A stretch of DNA of 64,000 bases, taken from assembly GCF_964204645.1 (NCBI RefSeq), contig NC_134031.1, positions 12,945,807 through 13,009,806 of the forward strand, read 5' to 3'. Made by a program: the position numbers and the translations under genes. The first letter of the stretch is position 1. Every line of letters begins with the position of its first letter. Of this stretch, positions 29,250 to 55,481 are shown one piece after another. Below the pieces are notes generated by a model. The model searched no databases. It was not told the origin of the DNA and saw nothing but the letters and a program-made list of their open reading frames with translations. The stretch is from Tubulanus polymorphus (lineage: Eukaryota > Animalia > Nemertea).

Positions 29250-29278
29250 TCAAATTTTAATAAAAAAATGTCTTATAA

Positions 29279-29632: not shown

Positions 29633-29646
29633 AATATGTAAAATAA

Positions 29647-30405: not shown

Positions 30406-30422
30406 ATTTTTTCACTATATAA

Positions 30423-30764
30423 ATGAATATAACTGTTGGACCGAGTATATGTTTTGGGTTTGATTTTAAACATGGTAAAGAAATGAGAATTAAACTAAAT
30501 GATGTAATTACTGATATAAAAAGTAAATCATTTAACAATGCATCAATGATTAATAAAGAAAATTATAATATAGAAAAAGTAATTGATTTAATTTAATCAC
30601 CTTTAGAATATTATGAATTAAATGAAGATGGAATTATTGATGATATTAAAAACATATTAACCAAAATATATGATAATCATAAAAGTAGTAATGAAATAAA
30701 TGTTGATTTAATCATAAATAAGTTAACTAAATATTTTGATGATAGTAATTTTTTTGATAAATAA
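30423..30764 (+). pseudogene. Homologue of 118-aa acidic protein, internal stop
   Basis: MNITVGPSICFGFDFK start and YFDDSNFFDK end shared with A and C. Confidence 0.7.
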
Positions 30765-30986
30765 ATGAGTGATGATAAGTGGATAATAACTGGATTATAT
30801 AATGGAGCATTACTATCAGTTGGAACTGTTGGTTATTCAATGGTATTAAAAAAAGTATTCAAAATGGGAAGTGTTAATGTTGATAGATTTGATATAAATG
30901 ATATCTTAAAATTAACCTTAGCAGTTACTTTATCTAATTTAACTATTGATTATTTAGAAAAACAAAAATATATTCCTCCTATATAA
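30765..30986 (+). CDS. Small hydrophobic protein (73 aa)
   Basis: Homologue of 8506-8727. Confidence 0.8.
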   Translation: MSDDKWIITGLYNGALLSVGTVGYSMVLKKVFKMGSVNVDRFDINDILKLTLAVTLSNLTIDYLEKQKYIPPI

Positions 30987-31010
30987 ATGCGTAATTATTT
31001 TACTAAATAA

Positions 31011-31433
31011 ATGGCTTCTGCAGTTATAACTATTATAGGATCGGCAATTGTTAACGCTTAAGCATTTACTGGTGGTGGTTATTTATTTAAGCATATTGAT
31101 AAAAATGGATCATTAACAGAACAAAAAAGACATAACTTAGCATTAGAGAAATATAATAAAGCAGCAGAAGAATATAGAGAAAAAAGGCAAAACTATATGG
31201 ATTACATCAATAAAGAATTATATGATCAGAAGATTTCACATAGAGATTTTCAATCAGTTGATGATGCAATGAGTTTATATAACGCGGTAACCAATAAAGA
31301 AAAATTACATCTATACAAACCTAAATTATCAGATTATTATACCCCAAGTAATGAACAGAAGAAATATGAAATAATATGGATTTTAGGTGGAACAGTTATT
31401 GTTATATTTGTTGCTTATAAATTTACTAATTAG
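31011..31433 (+). pseudogene. 140-aa membrane protein, stop at 31059
   Basis: TTA to TAA change relative to A and C. Confidence 0.8.
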
Positions 31434-31453
31434 TAATTTTTTTTGCTAAATAA

Positions 31454-31888
31454 ATGGAAGATAAAGTTGATAATATTGATATTATTCCTCATGATATAAA
31501 TAAAACTAAATTAAAAACATATTTAGAAAAACAAATATTAGAATTTGAAAGTGACTTAAAGATAAAAAAGAAAAAATATTTAAAAAGTAAAATTATATAT
31601 TATCTTATTATCAGTGGTTCGGTTACAATTAGTTCTGTAATAACATTTCTAGCAATATTCAGTCCACTAACACCTTTAGCTATATCAATTGGTGTATTAG
31701 GATTAAGTTCAAGTGTTTTAACCGGTATAAGTTCAAAATTAAATATAAAAAGTAATAAAGAAAAAATTAAAACTAATATAAAAGAGATTAATAAATTAAA
31801 GAATACACTAGATTATATAATAAGTTTAAATGGCCATATAACAGTTGAAGAACAAGATAAATTATTAAAAGAATTAATAAATTATTAA
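31454..31888 (+). CDS. Two-TM membrane protein
   Basis: Homologue of 9195-9629. Confidence 0.8.
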   Translation: MEDKVDNIDIIPHDINKTKLKTYLEKQILEFESDLKIKKKKYLKSKIIYYLIISGSVTISSVITFLAIFSPLTPLAISIGVLGLSSSVLTGISSKLNIKSNKEKIKTNIKEINKLKNTLDYIISLNGHITVEEQDKLLKELINY

Positions 31889-31904
31889 TTTTTTGATTAT
31901 ATAA

Positions 31905-33254
31905 ATGGTAGATAGTTTTCCAAAAGCTTTCCAATATAACAAATCAATTAAATATAATATTCCAGCAATAGATTTTAATAAAGATATTACATATAGAAAT
32001 GAAGTTTTAAATTCATTAATTGATTTATCTATTTATGTTACTGAACGTAATAATTTTCATGTAAAGATGGAAAATATATTTCATGTGTATACAATTAATT
32101 TCAAAAATTTAAATGAGGCAAAACAATGGTTATTAAAATCTAATATGAAGTATTGGCAGAACCAATTAAATTTTGCTGTTTATTGTGCAACAACAGGATG
32201 TGGAATAAGTTGGAATGATCATTTAAACAAACCAAGTTTACCATTGATGTTATCACTTTTTAGATTTCATACATATTTTCAAATAAAATTAATATTAGAT
32301 GAATTAGAATGTCCTATACCAGGTTCAAAATATTTTAAAGAATTGAATAATAATATTAATTTTTCTAAGTTTTATAAAATATGTAATGAATTTAATATTA
32401 ATTCAAATAAAGATTTTAGAGCAAAAATTGGAACAATGGGTGGATAAGGAATATTGTATACTAAAGAATTTGGAAAAATAATGACAAATTCAGATATAAG
32501 AACACTAAATTGGAATGTATTACCAAAATATTATAATAATATACAACAACAAAATAATAATGGTTGGGTTAATTTCATTTTAGAAAATGGTGAAGATTTT
32601 ACTAAAGCTGGAATACAAAGAATAAATCAATCTATTAGAACTTATTTAATTTGTATTTTAGGTGCACAAGTTGAAACAAGATCCCCAATAATTGGAAATG
32701 ATAACACATTCGATGCGCAGAAACAATTTAAAGTATTATTTGAAGATTCAATTCATAATGATAAAAATAGATCGATTCCAGAAAACATTGTAAGATATCA
32801 AAATTATTTAGATAAATCACATATTAGATTAAATTATTGTATAGGCCCTAATCTATTAATTATTTCTAATGATTTAGTATTAAAGATGGGAAATATAATT
32901 GGTTATAATAATCTAATTAAAACTGCAACAATAAATAATTCATTTGGATTAAATGATATAAATAAAAAGATTATCACTGCTCCAAAATTAATGGAAGGTG
33001 AAAAAAATAAAAAACATATTCAATCAACAGAAACTAAAACTAATAATATTAAATTAAATAATGATTCTAAAATAAAAGATTACAATACATCAGAAAATAT
33101 AAAAACTGATAATGGTGCCGTATGGCACCCACACGGTGATATTCAACATGTTATAATTAAACTAAATGATGATAATAAATCCCATGAAAATACTAAATTA
33201 GCTATAACTTGTATAGGAATTGTAATCGGAGGAATATTATATTTTAAATTTTAA
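31905..33254 (+). pseudogene. Conserved ~450-aa protein, one in-frame stop
   Basis: ORFs 31905-32447 and 32454-33254 in the same frame. Confidence 0.75.
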
Positions 33255-33270
33255 TTTTTTTATTATGTAA

Positions 33271-34850
33271 ATGGTAGAAGGTGAAGAAGATATTCCATTG
33301 GGTGACATGGGAAATAATAATGAAGGATATACTGATGATGATTATAATGATGCAGAAACTAATATTGATGATGGTAATGAATCAGCATATAATTCTAATT
33401 TAGCAGATAGTGGTTCTAAAGCCCCATCAACAGATGAATTTGATAGAAGAACTAGATCGAGAATACCTCCTGAAAACTTAAATCAAGGTTTATCAAGACA
33501 AGATTTAGAATATAATAAAATTATTTATAAATTCAAACCTGTATTTGAAAGATCTGGGTATAATATAAGTGATAGAGATGCTGAACTTTTAGTAGAAAAT
33601 TTAAAACTTTTTAAAGGTAAATATTATTATCATTTGGATGGTGATTATTATATTGATATCACTAATCAAAGGACAAAACTAAATAAAATATTAGCGGAAT
33701 CAACTTTGAAAAATTTAGAAACATTTAGAATTAAGAGAATAAGTAATAGTAATGAAATAACTGATGTTACACAAGAAGAAAGAGATGATAATATAACAGA
33801 ATTTAGTGAAAGAATTGATGACTTATTAAAAATAATCAATAAAATTCAGAAACAGAAATGGAAGAGTATAGAGATCGATTAGATAAATTAAGATCTTCAA
33901 CACCTGAAACATCGAGAAGAGATATTCAACAAATTGATAATGATTCAAGCCAATTAAATTATGGTAAAATAATTGATACAATGAATTCATTTGAAGAAGA
34001 TATGATTAGTATTTTAGATACGCCCGGTACTGAAACTGGAATAAATCGAATACTATCTTTACTAGAAAAAGGATTACTTGATTTAACTGATGATGAATTA
34101 GAAGAATTTCCTGAACTAGCACGTAGAGAAATTAAAGGTGTACAAATATCAGCTGGTGAAATTGCTAATATTAAGATGAGATTTTCTAAAATAACCATGT
34201 TAGATAAAGAATTAGCTAATGCAAATGAAGAATTAAAACAATTAGAATTAAATAAAAATCTTCAAGTAATAGAGGAAGCTGATTATGAAAGCAGAAAGTT
34301 AGCTTTAGAAAAAGAAATAGATGATTTAAAATATAACAAAGAATTACAGGAAAAAGAAAGAGATACATTATTAAAATCATATGATCTTTATCATATTAAA
34401 AAATTAAAAGTTATTTTTAAAGATTTGTTGATTAAACCAAATTCTAAAATATCATTAAAAGACAGAATGAGATTATTATTTAAGTTAGAAGGTATAACAA
34501 TTCTTTCAATTCTAACATCTGTAACTATGGTATTTACAACAATTGGTTTAGCAATATCAAATGCTTTAAAATCTACTCCTACTCCAAATAAACCGGATAA
34601 ACCCCCAAATGACAAAAATTCTATACAAGATAAAGTTAAAGATGGTTTAAAGAAATTAGCAAAATATTTATGGGAACTATCTAAAAAATCTGCTGCAGCA
34701 TTGCCAGGAATTATTGCATCAATTGTTGGTTTTATATTGAAATCTGCAGGAAACATTATTAACTTTGCTGCTGAACATATTATTTTATTTTTAATTACAG
34801 TTGTAAGTGCTATTATTTTTGGGTTAGTAAACATGATAAAAAATAAATAA
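33271..34850 (+). pseudogene. Coiled-coil/TM protein, one frameshift
   Basis: ORFs 33271-33882 and 33858-34850. Confidence 0.75.
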
Positions 34851-34871
34851 TTAATTTTTTTTGTTAAATAA

Positions 34872-36115
34872 ATGAGTGGGAGTTATATCAATCCTTCTAA
34901 GAATCATAGAATATCTAATGCTATTAAAGCAGAAAGATCACACCATATAATTACTCATAACCTTATAATATTAATCCCGATGAAACTTTATATGTTAGAA
35001 TCCCTCGACTAACACAAAATACTTTATACGTTCCAAATAGTATTTATTTATCAGCCGATATAAAAGTAACTGGTAATAATAATAATTATGTTGTTGATAA
35101 TGTTGGAAGGTATTTGATTAAAAAATTAACAATAAAGATCGGTCCAGAAACAGTTTTCTCATTAGATGATTATAATTTATTTATGCATTATAAAGATTTA
35201 TGGTTAACTAAAGAAAATAGAAATAATATGATATTTCAAGGAATCCAATCAGAAAACCAAAATAAATTAAGATCAGAAGCTAATAGCGCAATATTAACTA
35301 ATGCTGTAGATAAATTGATAAAAAGTATATATGGAAGCAAATATAAAATTCCATTAGACTTTGAATTGATAAATAACAATGCACCTTTATATAAATACGC
35401 AATTCAAGAAGACGTTATATTCGAAATAACATTTGCTCCTGTAAATGAAATTGTATTATCTAGCGTTAATAAAGATATGAGTTATAAATTATCGAATATA
35501 TGTTTAGAATATGACACAGTAACTGATGAAAATATTTCAAGTATAATTCAAACTAAATACAATCAAGGATTTTCATTATTATATGATTATATTGATAAAT
35601 TTAAAACTGTAACTATTAATGCAAATGATGAAATAATTAATGAGAATATTAACTTCCCAAGAAGATCTATTAAAGGTATATTAATATTTTTTACTATTGC
35701 AACATATACTAATGGTGCAATAAATGTTGATAATTATTATAATCCTGAAATAACAAAAGTAGAAATAACTATCGAAGGAATAGCAAATAAAATATTTTGT
35801 CAAGGAATGAGAATGATTGATCAATGGCCAGAAATTAGAAAACATTTTATGAATGAAAAAGTAAAATCATCTGAAAATTGTAATATTAATCAAATTGATT
35901 ATTATACCGGTAATAAATATGCATTATGGTTAGATTTTAGAACAACAGAGGATAATTCATTACATGGTTCTGGAAAAAAACTACAGAACATTAAAGATGG
36001 AATACAATTATTCATGACAAAAAATAAAGGAATCAAAAATTTTAAAATGCACATTTATATTATATCTGACGCGCAATTAAATATTGTAAATTCTCAATTA
36101 AATAGTGTTATGTAG
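34872..36115 (+). pseudogene. Major capsid protein (B), 5' frameshift
   Basis: Near-identical to 12719-13966; indel near 34965. Confidence 0.8.
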
Positions 36116-36150
36116 TAAAATTTTAACTTTGATAAAAATTTATATAATAA

Positions 36151-37017
36151 ATGGAAGGAGGTAAAGTATATAAACATATTCCATACATCGATACACATGA
36201 CAATAATGATGGTTTATATTATGTAATACCTTGTAATATAGCTTTGATATTTGATCCTATTTTCAAAATTTATAAAACTAAACTAATAGAAATCGATAAT
36301 AATAAAAGTGGTGTTGTTGATAATTTAAGTAATGTAATTGATAATAATGTAATACCTACTACATCTAATAATGTAATACCTACTACATCTAATAATGTAA
36401 TACCTTCTACATCTAATAATGTAATACTTTCTACATCTAATAATGTAATACCTTCTACATCTAATAATGAAATAATATTAAATGTTAGTGGAAATAGAAA
36501 TTATTGTGGATATTGTAAAAGTGAATTTTCAAACGCTACATCAAATTGGAATAAACATATGAATACAAGGGTACATATAAATAATGTTATAGAACGTGTT
36601 GGTTTAAAAGAATTTATAGAACACCCATTTAGATATGTTACAAAGTTTGTTTCAAATCAAAAAGTAAATGGTGAAAAAATATATGAAGGTTTATTATTAG
36701 TAACACCTAATAAAGATGAATTAGATCTAACCAATGCTAATGAAATATTTAAACCAAACACTGTAAATGAAATATTAGGAGCAAACACTAATAAAGATAA
36801 TAATGAAAATACAGGAAAGCGCATTGATAATAAAGATTCTATGAAACTTAAATCAGAAAATAAAGATATAGTTGAGATGACTAATAAGTATATCAATAAA
36901 CCAATTATTTATGAAGATACGGTAGAGCATTTGAATAAATTGTTAGGGTCTGATTATGAATTGGAGAGTGATGATGAAAGTGATTCAGAAAGTAATTATC
37001 TAACACTCAAAAAGTAA
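36151..37017 (+). CDS. Zn-finger protein with NNVIP(T/S)TS repeats
   Basis: Intact 288-aa ORF, homologue of 13999. Confidence 0.8.
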   Translation: MEGGKVYKHIPYIDTHDNNDGLYYVIPCNIALIFDPIFKIYKTKLIEIDNNKSGVVDNLSNVIDNNVIPTTSNNVIPTTSNNVIPSTSNNVILSTSNNVIPSTSNNEIILNVSGNRNYCGYCKSEFSNATSNWNKHMNTRVHINNVIERVGLKEFIEHPFRYVTKFVSNQKVNGEKIYEGLLLVTPNKDELDLTNANEIFKPNTVNEILGANTNKDNNENTGKRIDNKDSMKLKSENKDIVEMTNKYINKPIIYEDTVEHLNKLLGSDYELESDDESDSESNYLTLKK

Positions 37018-37019
37018 TA

Positions 37020-37372
37020 AAGGTTGAAAATTGTATAAAATAATAGTAAATAAAAAAGGGGGTTTTAAGTATTAAGGTATCTAATACGTATCTAATACGT
37101 ATCTAATACGTATTTAATACATATTATTTGAAAATACCTTAAATTATATTTCTTTTTTAAATTTATATTGAAACCTCAGTAATAATAAATAACCTTTATT
37201 ATTTTCAAACTTATTCATATATTAGTTGAAAAAATAAAAATAAATTGGTTGAAAATTGTATAAATAATATTTATTTTTAAAAAGGGGGTTTTAAGTATTT
37301 AAGGTATCTAATAGGGTATCAGGTATTAGGGTATCTAATTTGGTATCTAATAGGGTATCTAATACATAGGTA
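37020..37372 (+). repeat. Intergenic block with GTATCTAATA iterons
   Basis: Homologous to 14900-15212. Confidence 0.85.
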
Positions 37373-37530
37373 TATTTTAAACATATTTCAATATTTATAT
37401 TTGTATGAGTTAGATTTTTAAACATTAAAAGTGTTAGTAAAGTTTTATTGAAATAATTCATATATATTCATGAATAACATATAAATGAATAACTTCTAAA
37501 ATCAATTTAGTAAAAAAATATGTATAATAA

Positions 37531-38179
37531 ATGGAACCAGAACAACCACAAACTATCAATATTACAAATAACACTGGTGTCATAAACATATACTACAAGA
37601 AGTGTTCTAAATGTGAATTAGATAAATTAGCTTTAACAGAATTTAGTAAGCGTAAGATTAGCAAAGATGGTTTTCAATATTGCTGTAAAACTTGTTTTAA
37701 ACTATATACCAAACAATATCGAGAAGATAATATAGAACATTATAATTATGGCAGAATATGTGAGAGAAAGATATAAAACAGATCTTAATTTTAGATTGAA
37801 ACAATGCTTAAGGACTAGATTAACACAATCATTCAACAAAGAAACGCATTCAGAAACATTATCTAATTTGTTGGGTTGTTCAGATGAATTTCTCAAATCA
37901 TGGATTATATTTCAATTCGATGATAAAATGAATATAGATAATTATGGTGAATACTTTCATATTGATCATGTGTTGCCGATTTCTAAATTTGACATGAATG
38001 ATGAATACAATAAGAAGCTAATATGGAGCTGGAAAAATTTAAGGCCTTTAGAAAAGAAGGAAAACATAATTAAATCTAATAAACTAGATATACAGTTATA
38101 TTTAGATCAACTGGATAAAGCAAAGACATTTGTTGAATTATGGAACTCAACACATAATGAAAAATACGTTGAATGTTAA
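37531..38179 (+). pseudogene. HNH endonuclease of the type common in large DNA viruses, one frameshift
   Basis: KKCSKC..CCKTC N-terminus; LLGCS..DNYGEYFHIDHVLP..NLRPL..ENIIKSNK. Confidence 0.8.
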
Positions 38180-39323
38180 ACGCTTAGAAAACCGGTTACT
38201 CTCGATCTATGTCAAACCGCCTGTATGTAATTGTATTAGGTTGTTTACAAAAGCATCTGTCGCACGTTATATTCATTGAATAGGGTGTACCTCATTTGAA
38301 TATTGATCGAATGTTCTATTTCAGTTGAAAAGGATTAATCAATAACATTACAAAGGAACATCTGTTGCACAGACAGTGTTTAGCTAGTGAATAACTGGCA
38401 GTTATAAACGCGCAGCACATAAGCATAGGAACGTATAGGATATTCTCTCTATAAACACAATTTTAGGAGTTTACAGTTATAAATGTAAGTACTGTTTTTG
38501 TTGTTATTAATGCGTTGGGAAACGTTAAACATGTAAAACTTATCCTGGTAAGATGCGCCACAAATGGTTATGTTTAAGTGTTGTAATTAATATTTTACAA
38601 CTACAACTTCAAGTTAGTTTTATTCTACGTTAGATATTTATCTTCTAGATAACAAAATGAAGACCATTGAATCAAGAAAGTGAAGATAGGAAGATGTGGA
38701 ATCAGAAATTATGGATATTTCAACTCATGAGACTGTAGCAGTTTAGCCATACTGTATAGGCTTTCAATGCATTACGTTTGCCGGAATTTCAATTGTGTCA
38801 TTCAGCTGTTGTTAATGTCACACACAGTGACAGATGTTGTATTATACTTTATTGATTCCTGCATTCCACGCATACCTTACCGCTCCTCTCAGGAGCGGCT
38901 TGGAATGTGGAAATCGATAATGATTGTAGAATGAAATATATGTGTTTATGAAATAGTATTTCCACCAGTCGTTTATTTGAATTTATTTTCAGTTTAAGGA
39001 TTTATTATCAAGAATCGGAAATGACTTATCTGGACAGTTATAATTACTGCTCCTAATAGATAGACAATAGTAGTGAGATAATCTAAATCCTAATTTAAAT
39101 AAAAAGTATTTAAAAAACAATAACTTCAACTAGCTAGTGAATTCTATTATATTTTTAATATTTTCTTTTCAAAAGAGAATACTTTATATTTTGAATAGAT
39201 TCAAATAGAAATTCTTTAAATTCAAATAGCTAGTATCAGTAGTCAATACTAGAATTCTTTAACTTTAACTATCTAGTATCAGAATACTTATAATATTTTT
39301 CTTATTAAATTTCTCTTATATAA

Positions 39324-39926
39324 ATGTCAAAGAAATCTAATAAGAATAGTATTGATATTGAAAAGACATTAGATGATTTGGGTATAAGTGATAATAAAGA
39401 TACAGTTGTTTCTAATTCTATTCAAGTTAATAACAATATTGATTATGACTACTATTTATATTGTAAGCATCATCTTCAATTATTAATTGCTGGCGGGAAA
39501 TCTAAGGATTTCTTGGGAAAAATTTTAACTTATCAAGAACTAGATGCTATGAAACCCGATAAAGTAATAAAATATTTTAAGATTTATGAAGAAGCTAGAT
39601 TAGCTAGAATAAATGATTCTATTTCAGATGGTATTGTCAAATGTTATTCTAAGTTATGTAACCAGTTAATACCAATTGATGATGAAAATAAATTATATAG
39701 TGATTTGAAAAATGACTATTTAGTTATGATTGAATTACAAAAATGGGTTGGTTATGCTTCATTTCAATTAGGATCGGTTATGACATTAATTTCTACTGGC
39801 GTCATTACATTTTCGAATATCAAACCTATGGAATATAAATCAGGTAAGAACGAAACAGATGTACTACAACCAAACCGTGAAACAGAAAATGAATCAGAAC
39901 AAAAATTAACTAAAATAAATGAGTGA
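39324..39926 (+). CDS. Hypothetical 200-aa protein
   Basis: Homologue of 57503-58108 (LYSDLKNDYLVM). Confidence 0.8.
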   Translation: MSKKSNKNSIDIEKTLDDLGISDNKDTVVSNSIQVNNNIDYDYYLYCKHHLQLLIAGGKSKDFLGKILTYQELDAMKPDKVIKYFKIYEEARLARINDSISDGIVKCYSKLCNQLIPIDDENKLYSDLKNDYLVMIELQKWVGYASFQLGSVMTLISTGVITFSNIKPMEYKSGKNETDVLQPNRETENESEQKLTKINE

Positions 39927-40287
39927 TAGCGTTAAGAAAAAGGCTAGATCCGAGAAACAAATTAAATGGGCAAGAGAATTAGGTAAAAGATCTTCAGAAT
40001 TAAAAAAAGCTAAGAAAAAGAAATTAACAGATATAAATGAATCACAGACTTTATCTGATATTGATTCAAATAATAATCCATCTAATTCTTCTAATGCTGG
40101 AAGTAATTATAAATTATATATTACAATTGGATTAGTAACAGTTATTATATTATCCGGTGTAATATATAAATCAAAATTCAAATCTGATGATAAAGATGAT
40201 TCCAATGACAATAAACCTATCATACCAGAAAATAAGTCAAATCCTAAAACCATTGAAAATAACCCAAGATTATTATTAATGGATTAA
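39919..40287 (+). CDS. Single-TM protein (122 aa)
   Basis: KQIKWARELG motif plus TM; homologue 58041-58409. Confidence 0.8.
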   Translation: MSDSVKKKARSEKQIKWARELGKRSSELKKAKKKKLTDINESQTLSDIDSNNNPSNSSNAGSNYKLYITIGLVTVIILSGVIYKSKFKSDDKDDSNDNKPIIPENKSNPKTIENNPRLLLMD

Positions 40288-40293
40288 AAGAAG

Positions 40294-41402
40294 ATGTAAA
40301 AAGAACAATATTTAAGAGATTTATATTATAACCCAGAAAGTGAAGTATCATATTCTAACGTTTCAGAATTATGGAATAAAATTAAATCTGATAATGAAAA
40401 TGGTGATGGTGCCGTATGGCACCCACATGGTGATTTAAAATATAGTGAATTGAAATCATGGTTACGAAATCAACCAACATATCAAATCCACAAGAAAATG
40501 GATAAAACTTATTTAACAAGAAAAGTTATGGTTTCATATATCGATCAACAATGGCAAGCAGATTTAATTGACATGAAGAACTTAGAGGAATACAACAAAG
40601 GATATTTCTGGATACTGGATGTTATAGACATATTCAGTAGATACGCATGGTCAATTCCAATCAAAAATAAAACTGGAATAGAAGTAACAAATGCTTTTAA
40701 ATCTATATTTAAAGAAGCTATTCCAGATAAGATACAATTTGATGAAGGTAAGGAATTCTATAACAAACATTTTTAAAAACTATTATCTGATAACGATGTA
40801 GAATATTTTTCAACACACTCAGATAAAAAAGCATCTATTATAGAAAGATTTAATAAAACATTGAAATCTAGAATGTGGAAATATTTTACTGTTAATGAAA
40901 CATATAAATATATCGATGTATTAGATGATTTAGTGAACGGTTATAATAATTCTAAACATAGTTCTATAAATATGAAACCTATACAAGCTAGAAAAGAAGA
41001 TAATTCGGAAATAGTTTGTAATAATTTATATGGAGCGTTTGTTACACGTGATTTCGGTGAACCTAAATTGAAATTGGACAACACGTAAGAATATCTAAAT
41101 ATAGAAAAACATTTTATAAAGGTTATACTCCAAATTTTACTGAAGAAATATTCAAGATTAAAAAGATAATATTAACTAAACCATTGTTTATAAACTAGAA
41201 GATCTAAAAGATGAAGAAATATTAGGTTATTTCTATGAACAAGAATTATCACTTGTACCAAATCCAGATAAAATAGAATACAAAATAGAAAAAGTATTGA
41301 AAACAAAAACTCTTAAAGGAAAAAAGTATTCTTTGGTGAAATATAAAGGATATGATGATAAATTTAATGAATGGATTTTATCTAGTAAAATTAAAAGAAT
41401 AA
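40294..41402 (+). pseudogene. Integrase with chromodomain (B), disrupted
   Basis: ATG TAA at start, several frameshifts; near-identical to A integrase; ends YKIEKVL..VKYKGYDDKFNEWI. Confidence 0.9.
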
Positions 41403-42014
41403 ATGAATAAAGATTTATTTATATTTGAACCGCATAATATGTTAGTTACTGGTGTAACAAACTGTGGTAAAACACATTTCATATTAGATTTGTTAGAAAC
41501 TATTTATAAGAATCATTTTGATAATATAATATTATTCTGCCCCACTTATGAAATGAATGAAACATGTAATAGAGATATAGTTAAGATGAAAAAGTTTATT
41601 ATATTAGATCCTAAAACAGTAAAAGAAAATTTAGATAATTGTATAAAAATAGCAATTGATACTTATAAAGGATCAAATACATTATTCATTATAGATGATT
41701 GCGCTAATTTACATGATTCAAAAGTTAGAGAAAGTGAGTTATGTTATCTAGCTTTCTCTGGGGGACATTTCGGGATAACAACATGGGTTTTAAATCAAAA
41801 ATATAATTCAATTGTTAAAGACTTTAGGGAGAATATAAGATTTCTAGTTTTATTCTACAATAAAGATAGAAAATCTATGCAACAATCATTGGGAGAAAAT
41901 CAAATTATACCTACTGAATTACATGATGAATATATGAATAAATTAAAGAATAATACAGGTTCAAAATTATTACTGAGACTACAATTTCCCTATGAAAATA
42001 AATTTATAAAATAA
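41403..42014 (+). CDS. Packaging ATPase (B)
   Basis: Walker A/B; conserved GRH changed to GGH. Confidence 0.9.
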   Translation: MNKDLFIFEPHNMLVTGVTNCGKTHFILDLLETIYKNHFDNIILFCPTYEMNETCNRDIVKMKKFIILDPKTVKENLDNCIKIAIDTYKGSNTLFIIDDCANLHDSKVRESELCYLAFSGGHFGITTWVLNQKYNSIVKDFRENIRFLVLFYNKDRKSMQQSLGENQIIPTELHDEYMNKLKNNTGSKLLLRLQFPYENKFIK

Positions 42015-42045
42015 CTATTTATATATTTATTCTATAAGAGCTTAC

Positions 42046-42513
42046 ACTTTTATATTGAATAATCTGTCAATTTAAATGTTATTCATGTATATGATTATTC
42101 TAAGAGTAATAGGGGTAATAGGCTTTCAGGTTAAAGGTTGAATGGTCGAGTTCATTAAAAACAAATATTAAAAGTAATTTAAAACTATAATATATTTTCA
42201 TAACCGTGTGTATTTCAGTTGAATAATAGAATAATTATTATTATTAAAATATATTTGATTATATGAATTTGTGTATTGTAAATAAATCAATTGGTCGCGG
42301 AGCGGAGCGGTAGCGAAGTGGAGCGACCAATTGATTTAATACAATATGCTTTTTAAATTTAAATTATTGATATCTTAGAATAAATATTTAGTTATAATAT
42401 AAAATACACACGGTTATGAAAATATATTATAGTTTTAAATTACTTTTAATGTTTTGTTTTTAATGAGCTCGACCGTTCGACCTTTGATCTGAAAGCCTAT
42501 TACCCCTATTACT
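42046..42513 (-). repeat. Right TIR of B with palindrome 42105-42513
   Basis: Reverse complement of left TIR with few differences. Confidence 0.95.
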
Positions 42514-42680
42514 ACTGTGCCCGGCCTATTCGGTTACAGTAGCAGGTCGTTGTTACTGGTTCCCTACAACGTTGTTTGTGAAACGACGGCTGTACTAGCC
42601 TAAGTAATTGGAAAAGTGGGCTTTCAGATCAGAGTACGAGAGTACGAGACACCACTCATCACCACAAGTTTTCCTTATAA

Positions 42681-45600
42681 ATGGGGGAGAATGAACACCA
42701 ACCAGAAAACAGTAATGTCAATAAAAATCAATATTATTGTCAATATTGTAAAAAATACATCGATAAATCTAATAAATCTAAACATGAAAAATCTTCAAAT
42801 CATATAAAAAATGTTATAGATTTTGAAACTCCAGAAAATTCCAATGAAAGAAAAGAACGATTAGAAAATATGAATGTGGATGAAATAAAATGTGAAGTTT
42901 GTAATGAATTTATAGTAAAAAGGAATTATAATAGACATCTCGAATCACAAAAACACCATCAAAATTTGAGTAATAATGTTTTAGGAAAAGATTATTTTGA
43001 CGATAAACCTCAAAAAGTAAAAAAAACCAACTTCAAAAACTAAATCCATTTCAAATAAACCTTACATGGAAAATGTTAGAAATTATATTGATTCACTAGA
43101 AAAGATACAATTGAAATTTTAGAAACATTACATAGTAAAATTGGTCCTGCATAAATTTAATGAAATAATAGAAAAAATACTAGATTTGATAACAGATGTT
43201 GAATATCCAAAAATTAGTATCTCTGGGAAAGTAAGTTTTATAAAGTCAGAAGAAAAAATGGATTATAATATTCAAACACTCTCTGAAGAAATAATTTCAA
43301 AAACACAAATAAAAGAGAAGTTAGAAAAAATATTAAATGAATTTAAACGTCATATTGAAGAAAGATATTTTGAGGGTTCTGGCTTAACATTGGATGAAAT
43401 TATATATTTAGATTTAAATGTTTATAATACAAAAAGAAATAAAACATCAAAAAGTAATAAAATGTTTAAAAATGATTCAAACTTTACAACAGAAAAGGAT
43501 ATTAAAGCATCATCTTATATTAAATTACCATTTATAACAAAAGCAGTAATAAATATTCAAAATGAAGACAACAAATGTTTTCTGTGGGCAATTATTAGTT
43601 GCTTACATCCATCACAGGAAAATGTTTGTAGAATAACAGATTATCGGAAATATGAAACATTATATAAAATTGATCAATATCCAGTAACTATAAAAATGAT
43701 TCCTAAAATAGAAAAAGTTAATAATTTAAAAATAAATGTATTTGAATTAATGCAATTACCAAAGACAAAAGGTGAAAATATTAAAGATTATACATTGGAA
43801 GCTTTATATTTAACAGAATATTATGATGATGAAAATGCTATAGATTTGTTATATTACAAAAAAGATGAAAATGAACATTATATGTGGTTAAAACAAATTG
43901 ATTTATTCTTTAGAACAGAAAGTGATCATCATCATAAAATTTATCTATGTAGAAAATGTTTATCTAAATTTATGACTGAGAATACATTACTAAAACATAA
44001 AGAATTATGTGATAATAAAGATTTTTGTAAATTAATAATGCCAACAGAAAAAGATTATAAATTGAAATTTACTAATCATAAATTTAAAAATATTGTTCCA
44101 TTTGTAATTTATGGGGATTTTGAATCGTTGAATAAAGAATTAACTAATCAAGATAGAAAAGAAATATATAACAAAAAGCAATTATTAAAATCAATGGATA
44201 AAGGAAATGAATTAAATGAAGACACAATACAAGACCCACCAATTATAAATACAATTAAAAAAGTTCATCAAAGAGCTGCTGCTTATGGAATTTATATAAA
44301 ATCAAATTATCCCGAATTATATGAAAGTCAATATATTTCTTTTAGAGGTGAAAATGTAGTTAATGATTTTTGTGATAAAATGATTGAATTAGAAAGTGAT
44401 TTTGCAAAATTATTAAACAAAAATAAAAGAATAGTTATGACAAAAGAAGATGAAATTGATTTTAATTATGCAACTCATTGTTGTTACTGTGAAAAACGTT
44501 TTTATTCATTTGATAAAAAAGTTAGAGATCATAATCATTTGAATGGAAAGTTTAGAGGCGCTGCACATGAGAATTGTAATTTGCAAGCAAAGAAAATCAA
44601 TTTTGTCCCCATTATATTTCACAATTTATCGGGGTATGACGCGCATTTATTTATCAAACAGTTATGCTATAAAATAGAAGAAATTAATAATGAAATAGAA
44701 AGATTAAATTCAAATAGATCAAAAGATAAAATACCAACTTATAAATTAAAAATACTAGCTAAAACATCTGAAAATTATATTTCATTTCAATTTGGTTACA
44801 TTAGATTTTTAGATTCTTATAGATTTCTAGCAAGTTCATTAGATAATTTATCAAAAAGTTTAGTTGATAATGATTTTGTTATAACTCGATATTATTATCC
44901 AAATGACCAAGATTTTAAATTATTGAGATATAAAGGTGCAATTCCTTATTCATTTTATAAAACACATGATGATTTTAATGTAACAGAATTATTAAAAGAT
45001 CAATTTTATGATAAATTAAAAGAGGAGTATGTGAAAGACGAAGTGTTTAATAGAACATTAAATATTTGGAACCATTTTAAGATGAAAAATCATGGTGAAT
45101 TAGTTGATTTATATTTAAAATCAGATGTTATGATATTGGCTGACATATTTGAAAAATTTAGAGAAGTTAATTTGAATCATTTTAATGTTGATCCTTGTTA
45201 TTGCTACTCTAGTCCTGGTTTAACCTGGCAATGTGGTTTAAAATATACAAATGTAGAATTAGATTTATTAAAAGAACCAGATATGGTTTTATTATTTGAA
45301 AAATCAATTAGAGGTGGAATTAGTGGTGTTATGGGAGATAGGTATTTTAAAGCAAATGATGAATATAAATTATTATATATTGACGCCAATAATTTATATG
45401 GTTGGGCAATGATGCAACCTCAACCATATAAAAATTTTATATTAACAGAAGTTGAAAATGGTGATAAAACTGATTGGGAAAGCGCAATTGCGAGTTTAAA
45501 AGATGAAGCACCAATTGGTTATTTCTTTGTAGTTGATTTAGAATATCCTGAAAATATAAAGTTTAAAACAAGAAACTTACCTTATTGCCCAGAACATTTA

Positions 45601-47696
45601 ACTGTAGATGATAGTTATTTAAGTGAATACCAGAAGAAAATAAAACCGAAAGATCATGTTTTTACAGAAAAATTAATACTTACTCAAAATAATAAATACA
45701 ATTATATTGTTCATTATGGAATGTTAAAATTTTATCTAAAACAAGGAATGAAATTAAAGAAAGTACATAGATATATTGAATTTAATCAATCGAAGTGGTT
45801 AGAAAAATATATAGATTTCAATACTCAACAGAGAACCATATCAAAAACAGATTTTGAAAAAGATTTTTTCAAATTGATGAACAATAGTTTTTATGGAAAA
45901 ACATGTGAAAATATTAGAAATAGAAATGATATTGAATTAGTAAATAATTCTGAAAGATTAAGACATTTACAATCAAGTCCTAGACATTTAGGAAATAAAA
46001 GGTTTGAAGATTATTTAACCGCGGTAAAATTAAAAAGAACGTCCATGAAATTTAATAAACCAATATTTATAGGTTCAACTGTTTTAGAAATTTCAAAACT
46101 ATTGATGTATGAATTCTATTATAATGTTTTACAACCACTTTTTGGAGAAAAACATATAGAAATATTATATTTTGATTCTGTAACAGCTGACACCCCAATA
46201 TTATTAAAATGTAATAATAAAATATTGGTAAGAAGAATTTCAGAAATAATTCCAAAACAAAATGAATGTTATATTTCATATGGTGAAAAAGAACTAATAC
46301 AAATAAATGGTTTAATGGATGTTTGGACAAGAAATGGATGGAAAAAATTAAAGAATATTATTAGGCATAAAACAAATAAGAAAATCTATAGAGTTAGAAC
46401 TAAATTAGGATTTGTAGATGTTACAGAAGATCATAGTTTAATTAAACGAAATGGTGATGAAATAAAACCAACTGATATAAAAATTGGAGATGAATTATTA
46501 CATAAAAGATTTTTCCAAAGAATGAATCATATGTCATTTGATGAAATAATTGATAATATTTATAATATAGAACCCGAAACATTGGAAGAAAAAGAATATT
46601 TTATCAAAGGATTTTTCATGGGTGATGGTTCAGCAGGTGTGTATAATTATGTTAGTGGAACTAAATATTGTTGGTATTTATGCAATCAAGACTTAAAATT
46701 ATTAGAAAGAATTAAGAAATTCTGTGAAGAAGTTTATCCAAATAAAACATTCAAAATCATAGATGTTATGAAATCATCGCAATGTTATAGAATACATGTG
46801 AATAATCCTAAAGATTTTGCTACAAAATATAATGATGAATTCTATATTAATGCAATAGTGAAAAGTAATACTTCAACAAAAGAAAAGATAGTTCCAGATT
46901 ATGTATTGAATGCAAAAAATAATTTAAGAAAGTGGTTCTTCATTGGATTCTATGCCGCAGATGGTTCAAAAAGGTTCCAAAACCGCAAAACAATATCCTT
47001 TGCTCAAAAAGGAAAAGTTGCTATATCAGGATTGAATATATTATGTAGTTCATTAGGATTTAATATGAATATAGAATTAATTAAATCTAAACCAAATTGT
47101 TTTAATTTAAGGCATGCAGAAAAAGAATTAACAGAAGAAGTTAAAGATTTATTTGAAATATATAACCCAACTGACTATGTTTATGATTTATCAACAGATG
47201 ATGGAACATTCAATTCTGGGTTCCCATTAATCCAAAAAATACTGACGCCTACATTCTAAAAATCAAGACAAATGACATAACAAAAGACTTAAAAACATTA
47301 AAACATTATTTTGATTTTAGCAATTATCCTAAAGATCATGAACTATTTAGCAATGATAATAAAAAGATTCCTGGTAAGTTTAAAGATGAATTAGGAGGTG
47401 ATGAAATGATTGAATTTGTTGGGATAAGAAGTAAAATGTATAGTTACAGAACAAAAGATCATGAAGCTAAAAAGTTAAAAGGAATAACAAAACATGTGGT
47501 TGATAAACATATAGAATTTCAAGATTATATAAAGTGTTTATATAAATCAATTGTAATGAAACACAAAATGAATTGTTTAAGATCAGAAGATCATGAGATG
47601 TACATTAATGAAGTTGAAAAAACTAGTTTAAATCCATTTGATGATAAAAGGCATATTTTAGATGATGGTATAAAAACATCACCTTATGGCCATTAA
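42681..47696 (+). pseudogene. polB: pPolB (C) containing an intein; frameshifts at 5' end and at intein C-terminus
   Basis: ORFs 42681-43043, 43141-47259, 47406-47696; same motifs as A and B but divergent. Confidence 0.93.
46177..47240 (+). mobile_element. Intein with LAGLIDADG homing endonuclease (~355 aa)
   Basis: Insert between YFD and TD; block A SVTADTPI, block B VDVTEDHSL, IKGFFMGDG and FIGFYAADG, block F YVYDLST, end IQKN/T if one A is restored. Confidence 0.93.
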
Positions 47697-48994
47697 AACA
47701 TAAAATCAATATCATCATACTCGAAATCACTATTGGCTTCTTCATTTTCATTTAATTGTTCAGGTTCTTCTTCCATTCCATTTTTCTCATTTAAATAAAG
47801 TTCTATCTTGTTCCACATTTCATCTCGCTCTCTTTGTTTCTTTTTGTTTGTTAATTCATCAAATGGAATTATAATATCTAGGTTTAAATAATTTACAATC
47901 TTATTTAAAAAGAATTCATAATTTATTGAATCTGTTATTCTATTTTCCAAATGATACATTAATATTTGTTTGAATATTTTTTTTATATTTTTCATATCTT
48001 CTTCTGTTAATTTAGGTTTTTCATAATAATCATTAAATAATAAATATAAATACATTTTCTTTTCTTTTGTGTTAAATGTTGATGGAATAATTGTTTTTAT
48101 AATATCTTTTTTAGTTATTTCACCATTTTCATTTTCTATTATTTTCATTTTTTCAAACCATTGCATATATTCTGGTGTATGATCTTCTATAGAAAATATT
48201 TTAAAAATTTCATCAAGATAATTTAATTTTGGATCTATGAGAAAATCTCTAGTTTTTTCTTCACCTAATAAATTCTTTTGCCATCCACATTCATTACAAA
48301 ATATCACAGGACCTTCTTGTCTTAAGTACTCATAAATACATTGTGGGCATTTTTTTCTATCATAGCTTGGTAATAGATCTTCATTAAGCTCTTGGTATTT
48401 TCTTACGTTTTCTTTATGTTTTATTGTTCTATTATGTAGATTTGAATTACTTGTTGTAATAATCAATTTACAATATTTACAATAATATGTTTTTCTTGTT
48501 AATTCATTATATTGTTTTTCTAACTTTTCAACTGTTTCTTCATTATCTGGTAACGTTTTCTCATATTTTATTTTTTCTAATAAATTATTTTTTCTTTCAT
48601 TAAATTCAGTTTCAAATTTATTAGAAATTTTATCTATATGTACTTTACGAAATTGATGATTCTCCCAATCTTCTATATTTTCAGGGTTATATTTTATTCG
48701 ACAAGGCTCACAGAAATGATCTTTTATATTATCCTTATCATAGAATAAGAAAGGTCTTTTCCAAATAACTTCAGGTTCAACTTCAGCAGAATTACTATCA
48801 ACATTAGCCGTTGCGCCATTAATTCTACACTTCTCTGAATGTTTTTTAACATAATTTCTTGAGAATAATTTATTACATTTTGGACAGTTTATTTTAGGGG
48901 GTTTATAATTTTCATCATGTTTTTTCATATGTCGAGCCATATTACTTTTTCTTAGAAGTTCACCACAAATTTCGCATGCTATCTTCTCATCCAT
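47693..48994 (-). CDS. Multi-Zn-finger protein with VLTF3 (poxvirus A2)-like C-terminal region
   Basis: C2H2-like fingers; CPQC..CNECG ribbon; INYEFFLNKIVNYL..ERDEMWNKI resembles the VLTF3 C-terminus as I recall it. Confidence 0.65.
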   Translation of the reverse strand: MDEKIACEICGELLRKSNMARHMKKHDENYKPPKINCPKCNKLFSRNYVKKHSEKCRINGATANVDSNSAEVEPEVIWKRPFLFYDKDNIKDHFCEPCRIKYNPENIEDWENHQFRKVHIDKISNKFETEFNERKNNLLEKIKYEKTLPDNEETVEKLEKQYNELTRKTYYCKYCKLIITTSNSNLHNRTIKHKENVRKYQELNEDLLPSYDRKKCPQCIYEYLRQEGPVIFCNECGWQKNLLGEEKTRDFLIDPKLNYLDEIFKIFSIEDHTPEYMQWFEKMKIIENENGEITKKDIIKTIIPSTFNTKEKKMYLYLLFNDYYEKPKLTEEDMKNIKKIFKQILMYHLENRITDSINYEFFLNKIVNYLNLDIIIPFDELTNKKKQRERDEMWNKIELYLNEKNGMEEEPEQLNENEEANSDFEYDDIDFMF

Positions 48995-49062
48995 TTATTA
49001 AGGAAAAATTTTATTAAAATTAATTTTTAGTGATGAGCGGTAATTTTTTTATGTTATAAATA

Positions 49063-49821
49063 ATGGTAGAATTAAAAGAATACAGAATATTTATTGATTC
49101 TAGAAAACTTACAAATTATAAATCTCATAATTTATTAGTACAATTAGATAGAGAATTCAAGAATTGTGTAGATTTAAAATTAGTTAATATAAGTTTATGT
49201 AATTCTTTTTATAATATATCGGATAAAAGTCTAGAACATTTAATTTTTTCAATCTTTTACAAAAAAAGGAATAAATGGTTTTTTATATATTTAAAACCAG
49301 GATTATATAATTTAGATACATTAACACAAGAAATTAATAGAAAAGCTCGAGCTAAATTAGGAAGTGATTCCGGATTTAGTATTAGAATTTTAAAAAGTGC
49401 TAGTTCTAATAAAATAAAGATTAGGTTAGCTAATGACGAACAATTTAAATTTACAGTAAGAAAACCTTTAGGTAAACTGTTAGGAATTAACCCAGATATT
49501 GTTACAGCATACGCAGAAGGTAAATCAAACTTAATACCTTTTACACATTTTTATATTTATTGCAATTTAATTGACCCAACAAAAACATTTGAAGCAACTA
49601 AAGATACAATTTGTAATTCTGGTTTATTAAATATTTTACCATTAAAAAATGTCAAACAATTTGGAACTCAAATAAATTATAATTTAACTGAATGTGATTT
49701 CAAACCTTGTATTCCACATTTCAATAATTTTAAATTAGAAATAAGAAATCATAATGGTTATTTAATTGATTTGAATAACTTTCCTGTAATTTATGAATTA
49801 GTTATAAGATGTAAAGAGTAA
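49063..49821 (+). CDS. Minor capsid protein (penton), intact
   Basis: 252 aa; YIYCNLIDP, LEIRNHNGYLIDLNN. Confidence 0.78.
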   Translation: MVELKEYRIFIDSRKLTNYKSHNLLVQLDREFKNCVDLKLVNISLCNSFYNISDKSLEHLIFSIFYKKRNKWFFIYLKPGLYNLDTLTQEINRKARAKLGSDSGFSIRILKSASSNKIKIRLANDEQFKFTVRKPLGKLLGINPDIVTAYAEGKSNLIPFTHFYIYCNLIDPTKTFEATKDTICNSGLLNILPLKNVKQFGTQINYNLTECDFKPCIPHFNNFKLEIRNHNGYLIDLNNFPVIYELVIRCKE

Positions 49822-49837
49822 TTTTTCACCTATATAA

Positions 49838-50197
49838 ATGAATATAACTGTTGGACCGAGTATATGTTTTGGGTTTGATTTTAAACGTGAGAAAGAAATG
49901 AAATTTAACATTAATGATGTAATTACACATATCAAAAATATTGCATTTTCTAATGAAACAACATTTGAGTATGAAACAACAATTGATAAAGAAACTTTAA
50001 ATGTAGAAAAGATTACTAATTTAATTAGAGAATCTTTAAGATTTTATGAATTAGATGAAGATTTTATCATCGATGATATCAAAAACATATTAACCGAAAT
50101 ATATGATAATCATAAAACTAGTAATGAAATAAATGTTGAATTAATAATCACTAAGATAACTAAATATTTTGATGATAGTAATTTTTTTGATAAATAA
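49838..50197 (+). CDS. Hypothetical acidic protein
   Basis: Homologue of 8149. Confidence 0.75.
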   Translation: MNITVGPSICFGFDFKREKEMKFNINDVITHIKNIAFSNETTFEYETTIDKETLNVEKITNLIRESLRFYELDEDFIIDDIKNILTEIYDNHKTSNEINVELIITKITKYFDDSNFFDK

Positions 50198-50419
50198 ATG
50201 AGTGATAATAAGTGGATAATAACTGGATTATATAATGGCGCATTACTATCAGTTGGAACGGTTGGTTATTCAATGGTATTAAAAAAAGTATTCAAAATGG
50301 GAAGTGTTAATGTTGATAGATTTGATATCAATGATATTTTAAAGTTAACATTAGCAGTTACTTTATCTAATTTAACTATTGATTATTTGGAAAAACAAAA
50401 ATATATTCCTCCCATATAA
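50198..50419 (+). CDS. Small hydrophobic protein
   Basis: Homologue of 8506. Confidence 0.8.
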   Translation: MSDNKWIITGLYNGALLSVGTVGYSMVLKKVFKMGSVNVDRFDINDILKLTLAVTLSNLTIDYLEKQKYIPPI

Positions 50420-50443
50420 ATGCATAATTTTTTTGCTAAATAA

Positions 50444-50866
50444 ATGGCTTCTGCAATTATAACTATTATAGGATCGGCAATTGTTAACGCTTTAGCATTT
50501 ACTGGTGGTGGTTATTTATTTAAACATATTGATAAAAATAGTTCATTAGGAGAACAAAGAAGACATAACTTAGCGTTAGAGAAATACAATAAAGCTGCAG
50601 AAGAATATAGAGAAAAGAGACAAAACTATATGGATTACATCAATAAAGAATTATATGATCAGAAGATATCACACAGAGATTTTCAATCAGTTGATGATGC
50701 AATGAGTTTATATAACGCAGTAACAAATAAAGAAAAATTACATCTATACAAACCTAAATTATCAGATTATTATACCCCAAGTAAAGAACAACAGAAATAT
50801 GAAATAATATGGATTTTAGGTGGAACTGTTATTGTTATATTTGTTGCTTATAAATTTACTAATTAG
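50444..50866 (+). CDS. 140-aa membrane protein
   Basis: Homologue of 8752. Confidence 0.8.
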   Translation: MASAIITIIGSAIVNALAFTGGGYLFKHIDKNSSLGEQRRHNLALEKYNKAAEEYREKRQNYMDYINKELYDQKISHRDFQSVDDAMSLYNAVTNKEKLHLYKPKLSDYYTPSKEQQKYEIIWILGGTVIVIFVAYKFTN

Positions 50867-50886
50867 TAATTTTTTTTTCTAAATAA

Positions 50887-51321
50887 ATGGAAGATAAAGT
50901 TGATAGTATTGATATTATTCCTCATGATATAAATAAAACTAAATTAAAAACATATTTAGAAAAACAAATATTAGAATTTGAAAGTGACTTAAAGATAAAA
51001 AAGAAAAAATATTTAAAAAGTAAAATTATATATTATTTGATTATAAGTGGTTCGGTTACAATTAGTTCTGTGATAACATTTTTAGCAATATTCAGCCCAT
51101 TAACACCTTTAGCTATATCAATTGGTGTATTAGGATTAAGTTCAAGTGTTTTAACCGGTATAAGTTCAAAATTAAATATAAAAAGTAATAAAGAAAAAAT
51201 AAAATCTAATATAAAAGAAATTAATAAATTAAAGAATACACTAGATTATATAATAAGTTTAAATGGTCATATAACAGTTGAAGAACAAGATAAATTATTA
51301 AAAGAATTAATAAATTATTAA
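50887..51321 (+). CDS. Two-TM membrane protein
   Basis: Homologue of 9195. Confidence 0.8.
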   Translation: MEDKVDSIDIIPHDINKTKLKTYLEKQILEFESDLKIKKKKYLKSKIIYYLIISGSVTISSVITFLAIFSPLTPLAISIGVLGLSSSVLTGISSKLNIKSNKEKIKSNIKEINKLKNTLDYIISLNGHITVEEQDKLLKELINY

Positions 51322-51338
51322 TTTTTTTAATTATATAA

Positions 51339-52707
51339 ATGGTAGATAGTTTTCCAAAAGCTTTCCAATATAATAAATCAATTAAATATAATATTCCAAC
51401 AATAGATTTTAATAAAGATATTACATATAGAAATGAAGTTTTAGATTCATTAACTAATTTAGAAATTTATGTTACTGAAACTAATAATTTTAATGCAAAG
51501 ATGGAAAATATATTTCATGTATATTTGATTAATTTTAAAAAATTGAAAGATGAAAAACAATGGTTATTAAAATCTAATATGAAATTTTGCTGTTTATTGT
51601 GCAACAACAGGATGTGGAATTAGTTGGAATGATCATTTGAATAATTCTAAATATAAATTAATTCAAAGTTTATTTAGATTTCATACATACTTTCAAATCA
51701 GAATAATATTAAATGAATTAGAGTGCGCTTTACCAGGATCTAGGTATTTCAAAGAATTAGATAATAATATTAATTTATCTAAGTTTTATAAGATTTGCAA
51801 TGAATTTAATATAGATATAAATAATTCTGATTTTAGAACAAAAATTGGAACAATAAGATCACTTCCATGCCCTAGAAAGATTGCAGAATATTGTGCACTT
51901 CCCATACCATCTAATAGCTTTTATAATATCTATAATAATAAATTAGGTTATGGTAAAATAGAAACAAAGGATTTAGAAACATTAAATTTCAATAAATTAC
52001 CGAAATTTTATGATAATTTAAAACAAGAAAACAATAATGGTTGGGTTTATTTCATTTTAGAAAATAGTGAAGGTTTTACTAAATCAGGTATAGAAAGAAT
52101 AAATCAATCTATTAGAACTTATTTGATATGTATTCTAGGATCACAGGTTGAAACAAGATCCCCAATAATTGGAAATTTAAATACATCATTTGATACACAG
52201 AAACAATTCAAAGTATTATTTGAAGATTCAATTCATAATGATAAAAATAGATCGATTCCAGAAAACATTGTAAGATATCAAAATTATTTAGATAAATCAC
52301 ATATTAGATTAAATTATTGTATAGGCCCTAATCTATTAATTATTTCTGATGATTTAGTACTAAAGATGGGAAATATAATTGGTTATAATAATCTAATTAA
52401 AACTGCAACAATAAATAATTCATTTGGATTAAATGATATAAATAAAAAGATTATCACTGCTCCAAAATTAATGGAAGGTGAAAAAAATAAAAAACACATT
52501 CAATCAACTGAAACTAAAACTAATAATATTAAATTAAATAATGATTCTAAAATAAAAGATTACAATACATCAGAAAATATAAAAACTGATATTATTCAAC
52601 ATGATATAATTAAACTAAATGACGATAATAAATCCCATGAAAATACTAAATTAGCTATAACTTGTATAGGAATTGTAATCGGAGGAATATTATATTTTAA
52701 ATTCTAA
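51339..52707 (+). pseudogene. Conserved ~450-aa protein, 20-bp deletion frameshift
   Basis: Lacks GTATTGGCAGAAGCAATTAA present in A near 9892. Confidence 0.78.
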
Positions 52708-52723
52708 TTTTTTTATTATGTAA

Positions 52724-54157: not shown

Positions 54158-54177
54158 TTAATTTTTTTGTTTAATAA

Positions 54178-55451: not shown

Positions 55452-55481
55452 AAATATAAAGTTAAAATTAAGGATATATAA

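Follow-up and report, generated by a model that had tools for sequence, protein, structure and literature searches.

Adenovirus replicates by way of a panhandle, with a pPolB and protein priming, and in adenovirus as in the bidnaviruses it is two distant TIRs that pair, terminal hairpins being absent. Bidnaviruses encode a pPolB and start by protein priming once a duplex end has re-formed from single-stranded DNA (PMC4938981). In AAV an imperfect terminal palindrome folds so that the 3'-OH lies flush on the inner arm, and the system includes a Rep nickase and flip/flop isomers (PMC11575299).

Truncated telomeres of Streptomyces, a protein-primed replicon (Tpg/Tap), are repaired by fold-back, in which the 3' single strand folds upon itself with GNA loops closed by sheared G:A pairs and is extended in repair (PMC5449611). 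This system is bacterial, has an internal origin, patches its ends through Tap and uses several short palindromes, and it serves here as a working analogy only. Virophages of Halocafeteria seosinensis and PLV subtype 4 contain palindromes inside their TIRs, for which hairpin priming was proposed in a 2026 bioRxiv preprint (10.64898/2026.07.28.741278). These palindromes adjoin the TSD in integrating rve elements, measure 52 nt in subtype 5 and occur mostly in non-pPolB elements; the section of the preprint on palindromes holds no analysis of mismatches or covariation.

The nearest relatives of the locus described here are the Mavericks (Polintons) of the adintovirus type, whose TIR size, TSD and end motif have been described (PMC8097293). 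The likeness extends to a 6-bp TSD, TIRs of about 460 bp, an AGT-type terminus and genes for a pPolB, an rve integrase, an A32 ATPase and a capsid protein. In contrast to the described Mavericks, the TIR folds back on itself, and the non-canonical pairs in the fold are strand-specific. Like the AAV end it is an imperfect palindrome at the terminus in which the 3'-OH meets the inner arm flush, although neither a Rep nickase, among the ORFs scanned, nor flip/flop isomers, among integrated copies, were seen. The palindromes are longer than those of Halocafeteria (150–409 nt) and belong to elements with a predicted terminal-protein (TP) domain in their pPolB, and unlike in adenovirus and the bidnaviruses local pairing of the 3' end is possible.

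Three Mavericks in the window

The window, a stretch of 64,000 nt from the nemertean Tubulanus polymorphus (NC_134031.1, positions 12,945,807 to 13,009,806), holds three related Maverick/Polinton copies, A, B and C. Element A runs from 2737 to about 16944, where it is cut off. Element B occupies 24626–42513 between two copies of the TSD ACTGTG (24620–24625 and 42514–42519, + strand), and element C, a sister of B that acts as a natural control, occupies 42603–59794 with the TSD AGCCTA and an identical TIR core of 66 bp. All three start with AGTAAT, a variant of the (AGT)2 terminal repeat, and Pfam matches to DNA_pol_B_2, rve and Pox_A32, with weak matches to Capsid_N, were obtained in A, B or C. 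The 6-bp TSD and the TIRs of B, this gene set and the AGT-type terminus are those of Maverick/Polinton elements.

The left TIR of B (24626–25085, with its palindrome at 24626–25023) and the right TIR (42043–42513) are 96% alike over 471 columns, and their palindromes have the same orientation. B's copies of the pPolB, rve, ATPase and capsid genes show 75–91% DNA identity in the alignment and several are broken. The A32-like packaging ATPase of B (41403–42014, +) has its stop codon 91 nt before the inner arm of the right palindrome, so that read-through would transcribe the strand that carries the wobbles.

Only 89 nt (42514–42602) separate the insertions of B and C, which, with three Mavericks in 60 kb, suggests an insertion hotspot. 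Gene order varies among the elements, the integrase-ATPase block of A (15210–16944) being inverted with respect to those of B (40278–42025) and C (55509–57214), and an A-like inversion of this block is also found in two metagenome loci. C alone carries a zinc-finger ORF of 433 aa, which runs in the opposite direction (47693–48994, −). Elsewhere in the window, a separate fold-back of 745 nt with 83% arms (382–1126), which has a partial second copy at 59837–60016, has the look of a MITE or foldback element with no relation to the Maverick ends, and fragments of a retroviral-type aspartyl protease and an RT-RNase H at 60126–62004 are probably those of an LTR retrotransposon.

Fold-back geometry of the termini

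The end motif AGTAATAGGGG occurs at four places in B, at 24626 and 42105 on the + strand and at 25013 and 42503 on the − strand, as the first-pass annotation of this DNA had noted. When 42105–42513 is folded as single-stranded DNA it reaches −129.1 kcal/mol (z = −24.6), and none of 100 shuffles was as good. The imperfect palindrome of about 400 nt that had been claimed for each TIR is thus far beyond chance, but clean pairing is limited to about 111 bp of arm. The inner arm, an inverted copy of the terminus (42105–42215, +), carries six G·T-forming differences and is followed by a partly structured central loop of 186 nt (42216–42401) and by the outer arm (42402–42513), which ends at B's right terminus. 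The fold also bears out the suggestion that the 3' end sits flush against the inner arm.

Within the central loop there is an apex stem of 15 bp with a purine-rich loop of 24 nt (42284–42337, +). DNA loops of the cGNNAg type are stable, and a C(GGTA)G loop is present at 42308 on the 3'-terminus strand only. The same strand alone holds GCGGAGC at 42297 and 42302, a sequence described as folding into a hairpin with a sheared G:A closing pair (PMC5449611). Some copies have lost 66 or 92 nt of the loop (joints 42291–42358 and 42265–42358) and have retained the arms.

Strand-specific mismatches

The arm substitutions common to both TIRs of B number six and all are G·T on the 3'-terminus strand. Five of them, at arm positions 26, 28, 35, 39 and 47, had already been described as G-T pairs on this strand and are A·C on the opposite strand; the sixth, at position 62/63, is added here, and a 1-nt bulge lies at 59. 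Two changes private to the left TIR (positions 13 and 91) are A·C on the 3'-terminus strand, so that changes in a single TIR fall outside the G·T rule. The left-end palindrome of A (2737–2886, − strand; 150 nt, z = −18) has nine arm substitutions, a count that omits one further difference at position 75, located in the loop. All nine are G·T (four) or G·A (five) on the 3'-terminus strand, and a 2-nt bulge is also present. Two tandem GA steps are among the substitutions of A and fit the CGAG/py-GA-pu motif of stable tandem GA steps (PMC10085684).

Positions 35 and 47 are mismatched in both A and B. On the 3'-terminus strand, all 13 of the independent mismatches (six in B and nine in A, two of them shared) take the form G·T or G·A, for which the two-sided probability is 2 × 0.5^13, about 2e-4, if both orientations are taken as equally likely in this comparison of two subfamilies from one genome. 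In the genes of the elements, copy-specific transitions fall 73:59 by strand; with this baseline a general strand bias does not account for the pattern, and a bias local to the TIR could still be its source. Selection on a single-strand fold, as the first-pass annotation had proposed, is supported by the 13 mismatches and by the covarying partner sites in reads that are described below.

Within A, and likewise within B, inner and outer arm agree at all of their first 25 positions (25/25), and a further proposal, that the wobbles hide the inner end from the integrase, fits this poorly. Between A and B only 16/25 agree, so the arms change together. The three palindromic ends that the window holds share a single orientation.

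The outer arms of A and B have in common a block of GGTCGA direct repeats (42479–42461, −; arm positions about 30–50). In both inner arms the block is broken up, by changes that differ in part, and, judged from its sequence, it is a candidate protein-binding site.

Two sources of the B changes were rejected. CpG methylation alone is rejected because CpG sites hold only two of the six, and deamination of displaced strands was discarded by reasoning, as it would mostly hit the 5'-terminus strand.

The family in genomic reads

The wider family was followed in X6, a genomic run of which about 12% was read. Depth over the palindrome is roughly 1300–1600 as against 15.5 on the flank 42532–42562 (about 90–100×), which suggests that TIR copies number on the order of a hundred. 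Reads that pass the outer end enter varied flanks (agreement 0.34–0.37 in 1903 and 572 reads), as expected of many insertion sites; on the inner side reads run on into the element (637 reads, agreement 0.81). The palindrome is evenly covered by raw reads, which rules out an assembly artefact. A solo MITE at each end is likewise ruled out, since the inner end has no TSD and reads continue into the element.

Among the 40 variants listed of 110, which are unphased and in the outer 60 nt include reads pooled from other subfamilies, 17 lie in the stem. Eight of these form four partner pairs, at 42115/42503 (26/28%), 42120/42498 (56/56%), 42180/42437 (28/22%) and 42211/42406 (26/54%), and in the last pair these frequencies require T·G on the 3' strand in at least 28%. 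The four pairs vary together across copies, to the extent that unphased data show it, and the remaining nine have no listed partner. One of the unpartnered variants, at 42488 (44%), would make the position-26 wobble a G-C pair, and this wobble is therefore not universal.

Flip/flop isomers, a further expectation for hairpin ends, gave no signal among the variants and read ends listed. The inner diagnostic sites 42130, 42132, 42139 and 42151 are absent among the variants listed (down to 22%), a result that applies to integrated copies and that a minority below about 20% would escape. No loose end at 42105 is found among the X6 read ends listed, the smallest of which has 229 reads. Nor is there a pile-up of molecule ends among the listed reads, which come from a sheared genomic library that says little on free genomes.

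X6 reads also join B-type and C-type ends, in opposite strands, at 42040–42070/42601–42648 (21, 8 and 28 reads). These joints, whose orientation is ambiguous, suggest an exchange of terminal modules between subfamilies.

Beyond the genome, two ATPase-based scans of viral contigs confirmed no relative, and a scan for the terminal motif returned 120 matches, apparently at chance level. At 19 related metagenome loci neither a TIR nor a long terminal palindrome was found (0/19).

The polymerase and the palindrome-free sister

The pPolB of B (25518–29249, +) is divided into three ORFs (25518–25943, 25964–27865 and 27942–29249) and is broken in the N-terminal region; the test for a terminal protein was run on the corresponding ORF of A (3183–4301, +), which is 61% identical to that of C over 258 aa. 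The structural model of this ORF (pLDDT 86.6) has a beta-alpha-beta-beta-alpha-GSG-beta arrangement, with five strands and two helices, followed by a second domain, and the GSG lies after the second helix and before the last strand. Ser157 of the GSG is conserved in 73 of 81 aligned sequences (80 homologs out of 154 returned went into the alignment), Cys223 in 79 and His321 in 77. The top Foldseek matches are Y-family polymerases, including an isolated little-finger domain, at E 0.007–0.01, with E 0.001 not reached; PRD1-like terminal proteins are described as resembling the little finger and as having a TP plus vOTU signature (10.1101/2024.03.18.585575). The N-terminus of A's pPolB is accordingly modelled as a PRD1-like terminal-protein domain with Ser157 as the linking serine, followed by a putative vOTU domain (Cys223, His321) that is assigned from motif conservation and the literature.

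The EndoVII/HNH-like insert that the first-pass annotation saw in B's pPolB is real (26966–27112, +; residues 335–383; PF02945, E 5e-5). It is also present in A and C, its HNH catalytic motif is intact in all three, and of 29 long homologs of the pPolB 22 carry the motif. VSR nicks T·G mismatches. A VSR nuclease domain occurs in some marine Polinton pPolB2s, and HNH inserts in Polinton pPolB have already been published (both PMC10748475).

The pPolB of C has the GSG, the vOTU and EndoVII motifs and an intein. Neither end of C has a terminal fold (z 0.65 and −0.81), and C sequence stands at about 50× flank depth in X6. The EndoVII-like insert thus does not track the palindrome, and the abundance of C shows that the hairpin is not required in every member. 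No Pfam match to a HUH/Rep nickase was found in the 27 ORFs scanned, out of 55 ORFs of at least 100 aa, several of them without a family.

The intein in C's pPolB (43258–47259) has a LAGLIDADG domain and is inserted at polymerase motif C (46180–47239). The Pfam E values are 9e-7 and 1e-5, below and above the cut-off respectively. The reading frame breaks near the intein end, and A and B are without the intein.

A hairpin that may cap and repair the 3' end

The explanation that we favour, tentatively and at a little under an even chance, is that the fold-back of the A and B TIRs is a local single-strand hairpin that would cap and repair the 3' end and present it for protein priming. Every functional step of this mechanism is one that we infer. 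On a displaced or excised strand the 3' 110 nt would snap back onto the inner arm, and a duplex origin would form locally without an 18-kb panhandle. Nibbled 3' ends may then be refilled with the inner arm as template, which would explain the match between inner and outer arms within each subfamily. With G·T and G·A pairs the 3'-terminus strand would retain the fold, whilst the A·C and C·T pairs would weaken it on the other strand and hinder cruciform extrusion in the integrated duplex. A further effect of the mismatches at arm positions 26–62 may be that the second GGTCGA-repeat block no longer works. End protection by a hairpin, which the first-pass annotation had considered, is a plausible part of this.

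The flush hairpin end, the 13/13 bias against the gene baseline, the arms that agree within but not between A and B, the partner pairs, GCGGAGC at the apex, the tandem GA steps of A and the predicted TP fold are counted for this explanation. Against it stand the abundant, palindrome-free C, which speaks against the hairpin as a necessity, the nine stem variants without a listed partner, Foldseek matches short of E 0.001, and the 19 metagenome loci without a TIR. No extrachromosomal molecule was observed. Any polymerase could readily use a flush 3'-OH as a primer, and nothing that would stop its extension is evident.

Editing-like changes and an RNA hairpin

A further set of runs (X2, X3 and X4) comes from one sample and their run types are not on record; X6 comes from another sample. 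Within the palindrome the numbers of places with A>G and T>C changes are 30:8 in X4, 8:10 in X3 and 13:16 in X6, an X4 excess of A>G with a Fisher p of 0.015 against X3 and 0.005 against X6. Beyond the palindrome there is, by subtraction, no X4 excess (11:6 vs 17:12). The listed X4-specific changes number 13, with 11 A>G, a single T>C and a single A>C. All of these A>G changes fall in the arms, opposite T and preceded by A or T; they make up 22–100% of X4 contig depth, as against 0.1–2.2% in X6 and 0 in X3. Most X4 A>G changes are in the outer arm. The clusters are present in X4 and absent from X2 and X3 of the same sample and from X6. The strand of these changes is fixed as + by contigs that reach across the loop edge and the diagnostic sites.

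This pattern is very probably ADAR editing of an outward transcript, that is, of the wobble strand, in a run of unrecorded type, and the fold likely forms in RNA in cells. The first-pass annotation had not raised this apparent transcription and editing of the wobble strand as a dsRNA hairpin. Such editing points to folding in cells, though not to RNA as the site of selection.

It is nonetheless conceivable, if rather unlikely, that the selected structure is an RNA hairpin. Outward transcripts would fold on the wobble strand and be edited, retained in the nucleus or diced, with the effect of damping expression of the element or stopping read-through into host DNA. The X4 excess fits this, as does the preference for the wobble strand over its complement, which is larger as RNA (36 kcal/mol) than as DNA (11.5 kcal/mol). 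Yet editing is expected of any transcribed long inverted repeat and so bears on folding and not on purpose, and the comparison sets a run of unrecorded type against a genomic run from another sample. Furthermore, the stem stops exactly at the DNA terminus, which read-through RNA would not need, and Rfam has no match for the palindrome. Under the DNA hairpin that caps and repairs the 3' end, editing would be a by-product of outward read-through transcription; it counts against that hairpin that the folding signal in vivo comes from the likely RNA run only and not from DNA.

Accidental origin and self-priming

Somewhat less probable is an origin of the palindrome as a by-product, in which snap-back or a template switch duplicated the terminus, hairpin-mediated conversion holds the arms similar, and a local mutation bias towards G on the 3'-terminus strand produces the G·T and G·A mismatches in the absence of selection. 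Accidental annealing is the alternative given in the Halocafeteria preprint (10.64898/2026.07.28.741278). The by-product reading would suit the abundance of C without a palindrome, the differing palindrome lengths (150 vs 409 nt) and the loop deletions, and the six B changes, which with the outer arm as reference are all C>T or A>G on a single strand, have the deamination signature of an exposed strand. The gene baseline, however, is merely 73:59, the two private changes of B's left TIR run the opposite way, and the transversions of A (tandem GA) also suit the fold. In addition, mismatches 35 and 47 persist in both A and B despite separate homogenisation of the flanking arm.

Self-priming, in which the flush 3'-OH primes into the genome and the EndoVII-like domain of the pPolB nicks the mismatches in the style of a parvoviral rolling hairpin, was a proposal of the first-pass annotation and is weakly supported. 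The geometry is that of a perfect primer-template junction, the HNH motif is intact, hairpin priming has been proposed for the TIR palindromes of virophages and PLVs (10.64898/2026.07.28.741278), and integrated copies may be a selected subset that conceals the flop form. The pPolB, however, has a predicted TP fold with a linking serine and a vOTU dyad, and the palindromes of the preprint are mostly in non-pPolB elements. Hairpin transfer would invert the palindrome and place A·C on the 3' strand, as in the flip/flop of AAV (PMC11575299). The single orientation of the window's three ends, together with invariant inner diagnostic sites and no loose end at 42105 among the X6 data listed, goes against this, as does the wide occurrence of the EndoVII motif, C included, and self-priming is quite improbable. 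To the same low degree, the ends of A and B may be dual-mode, with protein priming at the ends, 3' ends that would also self-prime, and resolution by the EndoVII-like domain at the mismatches giving one orientation.

Implications

Palindromes in TIRs and the idea of hairpin priming are already known, and the new part appears, from sequence, to be the strand-specific pairs in Mavericks that encode a pPolB with a putative TP. A literature search of main texts, with most subscription papers outside its scope, found no report of strand-specific non-canonical pairs or of editing in Maverick TIRs, and the terms 'hairpin' and 'palindrom' are absent from the main texts of four Maverick papers (PMC8097293, PMC10748475, PMC8502044 and PMC11131425).

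In the literature consulted there is no experimental demonstration of how Mavericks exit the chromosome, keep their exact ends or replicate. If A and B were indeed dual-mode, their ends would be a living link that joins protein-primed to hairpin-primed replication. The apparent editing indicates that Maverick TIRs can supply the host with dsRNA. A family with a strand-selected hairpin and a palindrome-free sister family in the same genome offer a direct comparison for Maverick replication, one in which three roles can be told apart, namely the capping and repair of ends, self-priming and self-silencing through dsRNA.
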